Notes under the pieces: generated by a model | Told to the model about the DNA's origin: nothing | The model's input: only the letters and a program-made list of their open reading frames with translations | The model's database searches: none | Virus record (IMG/VR): IMGVR_UViG_2563366822_000006 | Source: a virus | Taxonomy: Duplodnaviria; Heunggongvirae; Uroviricota; Caudoviricetes | DNA length: 5,042 bases | Strand: one strand, 5' to 3' | Made by a program: the position numbers and the translations under genes | Shown here: piece by piece, positions 1,280 through 4,259 of the stretch | Layout of the letters: each line of letters opens with the position of its first letter | How positions within the stretch are numbered: the first letter of the stretch is position 1

Positions 1280-1495
1280 ATGAAATCCATGGACAAAATT
1301 TCAACAGGCATTGCCTACGGCACCTCCGCAGGCAGTGCTGGCTACTGGTTTTTACAGCTGCTCGATAAAGTCACGCCCTCACAGTGGGCAGCAATAGGTG
1401 TGCTGGGTAGCCTGGTATTTGGCCTGCTGACGTACCTGACAAATCTTTATTTCAAGATTAAAGAAGACAGGCGTAAGGCTGCGAGAGGAGAGTAA
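1280..1495 (+). CDS. S: Class II holin, S21-type pinholin with dual-start motif (antiholin/holin)
   Basis: The 71-aa product [71 protein letters not shown] is near-identical to my recollection of phage 21 S21 / E. coli EssD-EssQ. The Met1-Lys2-Ser3-Met4 dual start is present, with the Shine-Dalgarno sequence GGAGGTGAGG just upstream. The ORF-track start at 1223 is an in-frame artefactual extension. Confidence 0.9.
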
Positions 1496-1499
1496 TCCA

Positions 1500-1807
1500 A
1501 TGACTCAAGACTATGAACTGGTTGTGAAAGGAGTCCGTAATTTTGAGAATAAAGTTACGGTAACTGTAGCCTTACAGGACAAAGAACGCTTTGACGGTGA
1601 AATTTTTGGCCTGGATGTCGCCATGGACCGTGTTGAAGGAGCTGCGCTGGAGTTTTATGAGGCAGCAGCCAGAATGAGCGTCCGGCAAGTCTTCCTGGAA
1701 GTAGCAGAAAAATTGTCAGAAAAAGTTGAGTCTTATCTGCAGCATCAGTACTCCTTTAAGATTGAAAATCCTGCCAATAAGCACGAGCGTCCTCATCATA
1801 AATATCT

Positions 1808-1811
<4 letters not shown>
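1500..1811 (+). CDS. ydfR: YdfR-like (DUF1327) prophage protein of unknown function, inside the lysis cassette
   Basis: 103-aa ORF sitting between holin and endolysin, the same size and position as ydfR in the E. coli Qin prophage. Its ATG lies 4 nt after the holin stop and its stop overlaps the endolysin start (ATGA). Confidence 0.75.
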
Positions 1812-2835
<1,024 letters not shown>

Positions 2836-3195
2836 ATTAATATTAAATCGGATTATTTTTAGCGCTGAATGTGAAATTTAAATAAAAAGGACTCTTCCAT
2901 GAGTCAAAATCCTTGAAATCTTAAGGGTAAGATAAAAGGTCATTAGACAGAATGACACGTTTTATTAATAAATAAAGCTATTGTTTCATTCGTGTGTTTT
3001 TCTTTACAAAAGTAATCCTTGCTATGGTTGGTTAATCATGCGTTAATGGTGTTCTGGTTTGTTACAAAATTATCTGAAGCAGTCATTGTTATAATTTTAT
3101 TATTTGTACCTCTTGAGATTTCCTTGTTGGTTTTTCTCTCTGATATTTTTTTTCGGACCATTCTGCCCAAGGGCTAACTTCTTCAAAAGGTAATA
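2836..3195 (+). promoter_or_regulatory. AT-rich promoter and long 5' leader region of the cold-shock gene (CspA-family-type leader)
   Basis: A 360-bp AT-rich non-coding stretch with no ORF longer than a few codons. CspA-family genes characteristically have long 5' UTRs; a -10-like GTTAAT (3042-3047) lies 17 bp downstream of TTGCTA (3019-3024). Exact promoter and transcription start are not determinable from sequence alone. Confidence 0.35.
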
Positions 3196-3411
3196 ATGAT
3201 GTCTAACAAAATGACTGGTTTAGTGAAATGGTTTAACCCTGAAAAAGGTTTTGGTTTCATCACGCCGAAAGATGGTAGCAAAGATGTGTTTGTGCATTTC
3301 TCAGCTATTCAGAGCAACGATTTCAAAACGTTAACTGAGAATCAGGAAGTCGAATTTGGTATTGAGAACGGACCTAAAGGCCCTGCAGCTGTTCATGTAG
3401 TGGCACTTTGA
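3196..3411 (+). CDS. cspI: Cold-shock protein, CspA family (CspI-like, prophage-encoded)
   Basis: Translation [71 protein letters not shown] carries the cold-shock-domain RNP1 (KGFGFI) and RNP2 (VFVHF) motifs. It differs from my recollection of CspA, CspB and CspG and matches CspI. Shine-Dalgarno AAGG is upstream; the true start may be the second ATG (3199). Confidence 0.9.
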
Positions 3412-3615
3412 GGTAGAAAATATTACAAACCATATTCACTTTAGATGCCCGTGTTGCCATGGTTCTCAGTATAGAACATCATCTTTTGATGTTTCTGACA
3501 GAAATCCTTTCGGGGCAAAATGTATCTTTTGTAAATCAATGATGATTACATTTGATAATATTTCACAATACTTAAATGTTAGCCATCTGTCGTTAGATTT
3601 AAGAAAGTGAAAATG

Positions 3616-4082: not shown

Positions 4083-4259
4083 ATGATGAACATTGAAGAG
4101 TTAAAAACAAAAACAGAAGCAGATATTTCTGAATATATAACAAAAAAAATCATTGAGCTTAAGAAAAAGACCGGGAAAGAAGTTACCAGTATCCAGTTTA
4201 CTGCACGGGAAAAAATGACTGGTCTTGAAAGCTATGATATCAAGATTGATTTAATCTAG
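4083..4259 (+). CDS. gnsB: GnsA/GnsB-family protein
   Basis: Product MMNIEELKTKTEADISEYITKKIIELKKKTGKEVTSIQFTAREKMTGLESYDIKIDLI matches my recollection of the 57-aa GnsA/GnsB family (MNIEELK...TGKEV...FTAREKMTGLESYD.KI). Strong Shine-Dalgarno AAGAGGA before ATG 4083. The ORF-track start at 3993 is an artefactual extension. Confidence 0.85.
   Translation: MMNIEELKTKTEADISEYITKKIIELKKKTGKEVTSIQFTAREKMTGLESYDIKIDLI

Follow-up and report, generated by a model that had tools for sequence, protein, structure and literature searches.

The window analysed here, a stretch of 5,042 nucleotides, is the late or lysis region of a lambdoid coliphage. Between bases 1200 and 2850 it shares 99.9% identity with Escherichia phage mEp460_ev081, in which the corresponding region comes after the Q antiterminator genes. 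The holin gene S, ydfR, the endolysin gene R and the two spanin genes lie close together on the plus strand (Table 1). A consensus scan of the S-ydfR-R-Rz interior detected nothing resembling a terminator, nor any promoter-like site above the shuffle background.

Table 1. Lysis genes of the window and the elements recognised within them (positions are those of the window)
Feature	Position	Strand	Description
S21-type pinholin gene S	1280..1495	+	71 codons; PF04971 (Phage_holin_2_1), E 5.5e-36; PHROG holin
Candidate starts of S	Met1 at 1280, Met4 at 1289	+	MKSMDK..., as in S of phage 21
Shine-Dalgarno element AGGAG of ydfR	1486..1490	+	In the last S codons, 9 nt upstream of the ATG at 1500; predicted dG -9.5 kcal/mol
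ydfR allele	1500..1811	+	103 codons and stop; PF07041, E 1.1e-51
Conserved N-terminal domain of ydfR	1500..1715	+	Codons 1-72; pI 4.6
Allele-specific tail of ydfR	1716..1811	+	Codons 73-103; predicted to be disordered past residue 77
Deletion junction	1797..1798	+	About 370 bp of the 206-aa form (L009) absent; from the DNA alignment of window, L009 and BP-4795
SAR (signal-anchor-release) endolysin gene R	1808..2341	+	177 aa; Phage_lysozyme (PF00959), E 6.2e-24; hydrophobic N-terminus, Kyte-Doolittle 1.67 at residue 9
Rz-like inner-membrane spanin gene	2338..2835	+	DUF2514 (PF10721), E 3.6e-38; PHROG 312; GTG start overlaps the R stop
Rz1/RzoQ-like lipoprotein spanin gene	2531..2785	+	Nested in Rz, +1 frame; PHROG 11621 (Rz-like spanin), E 3.4e-8

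The second gene of this cassette codes for a protein with a single Pfam match, DUF1327, at 173.5 bits against a gathering cut-off of 25, and the match covers positions 1-93 of the 93 in the profile. The median dN/dS of its N-terminal domain is 0.30 (pairwise Nei-Gojobori estimates, pairs with dS above 0.05), which indicates purifying selection. Taken together, the profile match and this ratio identify the open reading frame as a real gene and not a chance one. The protein is acidic (pI 5.55 overall), and its 19-residue mean Kyte-Doolittle hydropathy peaks at 0.67, whereas the membrane segments of S and R reach about 1.7. No transmembrane segment, lipobox or muralytic domain was found in it. 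The product of ydfR is therefore cytoplasmic, and it lacks the marks of the core lysis proteins (holin or antiholin, endolysin, spanin).

An almost identical protein is encoded in the laboratory strain E. coli K-12. YdfR of its Qin prophage (b1555, P76160) shares 101 of 103 residues with the window protein, the two substitutions being G37D and M59R. The likeness extends to the neighbourhood: in Qin the genes essQ, ydfR, rrrQ and rzpQ/rzoQ are followed by a csp gene and gnsB, which is the order of the window, and rzoQ is nested just as the embedded lipoprotein spanin gene of the window is. There, too, ydfR starts after a spacing of 4 nt from the holin gene and shares an ATGA overlap with the lysozyme gene. 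Two differences should be mentioned. Upstream of the cassette the window has TolA-like passenger genes where Qin has cspB, and Qin is a defective prophage, whereas the window cassette is nearly identical to that of an isolated phage. The family, listed as DUF1327 in Pfam and as 'YdfR family protein' at NCBI, and its position were thus already known, and the window gene is the phage copy of the K-12 gene; what is new here is the boundary of the domain, the origin of the R overlap by deletion, the evidence for dispensability and the absence of a Shine-Dalgarno element from R.

The earlier note on this DNA had described an acidic YdfR-like frame without a transmembrane segment inside an S-R-Rz cassette, starting 4 nt past the holin stop and overlapping the endolysin start with its own stop. 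All of this agrees with our results: the holin ends with TAA at 1493-1495 in front of the ATG at 1500, and the TGA at 1809-1811 overlaps the ATG at 1808 as ATGA.

Are these two junctions properties of the whole family or of this allele? To answer this we compared 38 ydfR-bearing loci, taken from GenBank phages, IMG/VR and GTDB genomes and including the window itself. In all 38 the gene starts 3-4 nt past the stop of an S21-type holin gene, with a Shine-Dalgarno sequence GGAG or GGGGAG in the last holin codons, and it was seen at no other position. The coupling of ydfR to the holin gene is therefore universal in the family. The junction with R behaves differently. The ATGA overlap occurs only in the 103-aa allele (two frameshifted copies of 129 aa overlap R by 83 nt), and in other alleles the distance from the end of ydfR to R is 50, 53, 55, 63, 319-343 or 448-452 nt. 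In PhiR12_2, Stx2-86 and Evi reverse-strand genes are set between ydfR and R, that of PhiR12_2 coding for a DUF1823 protein, so that the junction of S and R behaves as an insertion hotspot.

The longer members of the family show where the overlap came from. Among them are ORF47 of BP-4795 (114 aa), gp05 of Stx2-86 (268 aa), the protein of Stx2_95 (329 aa) and the 206-aa form L009. They share with the window protein the N-terminal domain (46-83% identity), and their genes share the spacing of 3-4 nt from the holin, the type of R and an R leader without a Shine-Dalgarno element. They differ in having a coiled-coil and C-terminal modules and in a distance of 50-452 nt between their end and R; in the window allele a deletion removed these modules. 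In the DNA alignment with the 206-aa allele about 370 bp are missing from the window, and the sequence ...CGTCCTCATC, ending at 1797, is fused straight to the conserved R leader, ATAAATATCTATGA. Since the breakpoint joins the R leader, the last four codons (HKYL) and the overlapping stop are by-products of the truncating deletion. Judged from this alignment, the 103-aa allele is a deletion derivative of the 206-aa form, and it was the deletion that made the ATGA overlap. The overlap with R is not a feature of the family and hence does not support a lysis function.

The same conclusion follows from cassettes that do without the gene. Among 80 IMG/VR loci whose holin is at least 93% identical to S of the window, ydfR is present in 22 and absent from 58, most of the latter having a lysozyme of phage-21 type, about 33% identical to R of the window, with a start that overlaps the holin stop. 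VT2-Sakai has, only 4 nt past its S21-type holin gene, an R of the window type, with no ydfR between them. These 58 loci and VT2-Sakai show that ydfR is dispensable for the S21/R lysis system. An obligatory link to the 177-aa endolysin, which perfect co-occurrence in the IMG/VR sample had suggested, was rejected as well, because this R type is found in 457 phage records against 100 for ydfR, and because of VT2-Sakai. We conclude that ydfR is an optional, fast-evolving passenger of the lysis cassette and not a core lysis gene.

Its rate of change was evaluated by comparing the genes of the cassette with one another. Where S proteins are 99% identical, YdfR is either 78-81% or 100% identical; where S has diverged to 79-82% and R to 88-90%, the N-domain of YdfR is down to 46%. 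YdfR is therefore the fastest-evolving gene of the cassette, and the alleles of S and YdfR reassort, which speaks, if weakly, against a co-evolving interface between the two proteins.

These observations bear on the role in lysis timing or endolysin regulation that the earlier note had thought plausible. In such a case YdfR would be a cytoplasmic regulator of pinholin lysis. Its acidic N-domain would bind either the basic C-terminal tail that S21 exposes to the cytoplasm or the tethered SAR endolysin on its cytoplasmic side, and would thereby shift the time of lysis. The nearest precedent is the action of T4 RIII on holin T, a likeness by description, with no homology to YdfR shown. RIII is a small soluble cytoplasmic antiholin that acts together with RI in the lysis inhibition of a different holin class. 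YdfR is dispensable for S21/R cassettes, and this sets it apart from the RIII system. The constant place of ydfR directly downstream of an S21-type holin gene, its position within the same late transcription unit and the match in charge between the N-domain and the basic holin tail are all consistent with a regulator of lysis. So is a phenotype from an envelope-integrity screen, in which the Keio ydfR mutant was CPRG-positive, that is, envelope-leaky (Paradis-Bleau et al. 2014, supplement; PMC3879167). However, this phenotype may also be explained by the kanamycin cassette driving the downstream endolysin gene rrrQ through the kept ATGA junction. The gene is missing both from VT2-Sakai, whose holin and endolysin are of the same types, and from every P21-type S/R cassette in the sample; the reassortment of S and YdfR speaks against such a partnership, and an interaction with lysis proteins is nowhere reported. 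With the overlap specific to one allele and the only published biochemistry pointing to RNase E (see below), we do not favour this role and regard it as unlikely.

The position of ydfR has nevertheless a consequence for R. The gene occupies the slot in which R starts in phages without ydfR, and it uses the same ribosome-binding site in the 3' end of S; in VT2-Sakai the Shine-Dalgarno element inside S serves R. The predicted free energy of the duplex with the 16S 3' end is -9.5 kcal/mol for ydfR and -8.5 for R of VT2-Sakai, but +1.2 for R of the window and, in four further loci that carry ydfR, between +0.6 and +1.6 for R. Among the loci with ydfR the R start could be located in 33, and in every one of these the R leader is AU-rich and G-poor, mostly in the recurrent form ATAAATATC, and 32 of the 33 contain ATAAATAT. 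The predicted duplexes and the leaders indicate that the endolysin gene is without a Shine-Dalgarno element wherever ydfR is present. Because R has none, in the window allele it would be reached mainly by termination-reinitiation at the ATGA, and ydfR is probably a translational leader of R in this allele, acting in cis. The suggestion that ydfR is translated in step with the lysis proteins is thus sustained by the Shine-Dalgarno element in the last S codons and by the absence of one from R; what is not sustained is its extension to the family, since the R overlap is allele-specific, or to a lysis function. Against a leader in cis it must be said that alleles with a gap of 50-452 nt must start R independently from the same leader without a Shine-Dalgarno element.

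Could this effect in cis be the whole function of the gene? YdfR would then be the remnant of a longer multi-domain protein with no function in trans, kept because its frame brings ribosomes to the R start. The origin of the allele by deletion, the predicted disorder of its tail, the absence of a Shine-Dalgarno element from R and the many frameshifted or truncated ydfR copies in databases would fit a remnant, as does the finding that overexpression barely alters the transcriptome (PMC13232886). On the other hand, the N-domain is under purifying selection and remains intact in alleles uncoupled from R. Forms of 72 aa, consisting of the N-domain alone, are present in viable phages such as Evi. 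The 103-aa allele itself is intact in the isolated phages mEp460_ev081, HannyBb and Tritos, and a match covering at least 80% of ydfR is found in 1789 complete E. coli genomes. We consider a gene acting in cis only to be improbable.

The distribution of the family is narrow in taxonomy and dense within it. An exhaustive HMMER scan of 1.84 billion representative proteins gave 55 YdfR matches in all. Ten of them were retrieved, and all were typical family members except one metagenomic, repetitive protein of 3128 aa, which was rejected as a relative: its E-value of 1e-7 extends over six repeats at about 33% identity, and the repetition has probably raised the score. When 5.8 billion clusters were searched with a profile, 502 proteins were recovered, and those with a named source among the matches listed came from Escherichia or Shigella. 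In GTDB, with one genome per species, matches occurred only in E. coli, E. ruysiae, E. albertii and Shigella flexneri and in two metagenome bins. The bins, assigned to Veillonella and Bacillota, were discarded as carriers outside Escherichia, their sequences being 84-97% identical to E. coli, which points to binning contamination. The 100 phage records that match ydfR are all Escherichia lambdoid phages, many of them Stx-converting. The YdfR family is thus confined to lambdoid phages of Escherichia and Shigella. Within E. coli a DNA match to ydfR of the window is present in 3451 of 5426 complete genomes (about 64%).

Conservation across the family is limited to the first 72 residues or so, and the tails beyond them are mosaic. 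The invariant or nearly invariant positions of the alignments are Y5, E6, L7, V9, K10, G11, N14, V21, L25, E46, G47, L50, Y53, E54, A57 and A69, and the core invariants among them (Y5, V9, K10, E46, G47, L50, Y53, E54, A57) are all present in the window sequence. Family lengths are 72, 103, 104, 114, 116, 161, 169, 176, 183, 206, 211, 268, 287, 296, 305, 325 and 329 aa. In the long forms a coiled-coil and a further C-terminal region without a Pfam match are added; across these forms Pfam recognised nothing beyond DUF1327. One E. coli contig encodes a protein of 207 aa in which the DUF1327 N-domain, together with its linker, stands twice in tandem; this may be an internal duplication or an assembly artefact. 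In phage H-19B (AF034975) the gap of 400 nt between S and R, unannotated in GenBank, contains an intact YdfR-family frame of 114 aa at 1616-1960.

The structure prediction proposed in the earlier note was run with AlphaFold2. The model of the window protein has three beta strands (residues 5-14, 18-27 and 34-43) and then a helix (50-75), with pLDDT of 71-88 over residues 1-75 and below 50 over 77-103. An independent model of the 296-aa long form agrees with it in the secondary structure of the N-domain; with a mean pLDDT of 50 it was rejected as a guide to the lost C-terminal modules and kept solely for this confirmation. Structural searches with the N-domain model gave no informative neighbour, all similarities being at noise level, and PDB sequence searches with the family profile and two long forms returned nothing significant.

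A fast-evolving protein with exchangeable C-terminal modules invites comparison with proteins engaged in an arms race. YdfR could serve in counter-defence, superinfection exclusion or another form of host takeover, with a target other than RNase E and with its modules swapped in the course of conflict. Its rate of evolution, the modular and mosaic C-termini, the reverse-strand passenger genes that the same slot accepts and the restriction to one host genus would all be compatible with this. Yet PADLOC gave no match for the window protein or for five of six longer relatives, the E-value of 0.0032 for the sixth, a 169-aa form, being judged noise. The structural similarities are likewise at noise level, and expression from the late operon would be too late for most counter-defence roles. 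We therefore think such a function quite improbable.

A more specific indication comes from published work. Gopel et al. (2026) used RNase G as bait in a two-hybrid screen in which a fragment of K-12 ydfR, codons 1-72, turned up three times, and this fragment gave a stronger signal with RNase E constructs (PMC13232886). Of the RNase E constructs, Rne1-597 alone gave a positive signal with the full-length fusion, and Strep-YdfR co-purified Rne1-598-FLAG from lysates, together with DNase-resistant nucleic acid (PMC13232886). In the same study ydfR was almost silent in standard growth, and its overexpression changed few transcripts by RNA-seq (PMC13232886). The statement that the function of the family is unknown has thus become partly outdated by the RNase E interaction. 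All five PHROGs that share the domain are labelled 'unknown function'. Another screen names ydfR among the candidate genes for survival of streptomycin, the MIC being three-fold higher (PMC12924614), and a literature search on essQ and rrrQ found nothing relevant.

The interacting fragment, residues 1-72, coincides with the conserved domain that we delimited independently. Our tentative preference, held with rather less than even confidence, is that YdfR is an accessory late protein and that its acidic, conserved domain of 72 aa has a binding partner in the host, the catalytic half of RNase E being the likeliest, while in the deletion allele its frame also brings ribosomes to R. On this account the N-domain would be a host-factor-binding module, directed most likely at the N-terminal, catalytic half of the enzyme, for which binding of the K-12 protein, 98% identical to that of the window, has been reported. 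YdfR might then alter how RNA is processed or degraded late in infection, or it might bring a particular RNA to the enzyme. It would not act directly on holin or endolysin, and in the window allele its translation would set the endolysin level through reinitiation at the ATGA.

Several points speak against the involvement of RNase E. The evidence consists of two-hybrid signals and a co-purification carried out without nuclease treatment, so the contact may be RNA-bridged; the acidity of YdfR, for its part, argues against direct binding of RNA. Overexpression altered few transcripts, and the full-length fusion was positive with a single construct. It is also odd that the N-domain has diverged down to 46% identity when the supposed target enzyme is highly conserved.

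RNase E is a known target of phage proteins, namely gp0.7 of T7, Srd of T4, which binds the catalytic half, and Dip of phiKZ (PMC4980113). Should the reported contact be direct, YdfR would share with Srd its binding site, the catalytic N-terminal half of the enzyme (PMC13232886, PMC4980113). It differs from all three in its setting, since ydfR belongs to the late lysis operon of temperate phages, whereas Srd, gp0.7 and Dip are early genes of virulent phages, and its small effect on the transcriptome is a further difference (PMC13232886). PDB searches revealed no homology of YdfR to Dip or to any other solved structure, and Pfam and PHROGs returned only DUF1327 and families of unknown function. 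A bolder version of the RNase E account, which we find rather doubtful, is that the 72-residue domain is a temperate-phage modulator or adaptor of RNase E, of a new structural class unrelated to Srd, gp0.7 and Dip. Being made along with the lysis proteins, it would act in the last minutes of infection and tune how stable the long late transcript, or host RNAs, are or how they are processed.

The question is of some general weight, because ydfR is an uncharacterised 'y' gene of K-12 with a match in about two thirds of the complete genomes of E. coli and in numerous Shiga-toxin phages. If YdfR is such a modulator, then, through prophages, a modulator of RNase E would be present in most E. coli genomes. 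If the link to RNase E is direct, phage control of RNA decay would extend to temperate lambdoid phages; otherwise ydfR is an ordinary passenger gene. Since the conserved unit is a 72-residue domain whose gene is tied to the holin but optional for lysis, and since ydfR probably gates R in the window allele, an effect of a knockout on the translation of R must not be confused with the function of the YdfR protein.

Some other features of the window deserve mention. Between the Q region and S lie two passenger frames on the plus strand, at 186-482 and 633-1028, with the TolA C-terminal domain (PF06519; E 8e-24 and 1e-14). The second of them starts with MGLKKIVMLTFGVGFVAGC, which resembles a lipoprotein signal. 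Proteins of this kind could interfere with the Tol-dependent entry of colicins or phages. A terminator-like hairpin follows both frames at 1154-1171. Downstream of the spanin genes, within 3041-3457 on the plus strand, there is a cspA-type thermoregulator leader (Rfam RF01766, 110 bits) with a csp gene at 3196-3411, and gnsB is located at 4086-4259, a layout like that of cspI...gnsB in Qin.
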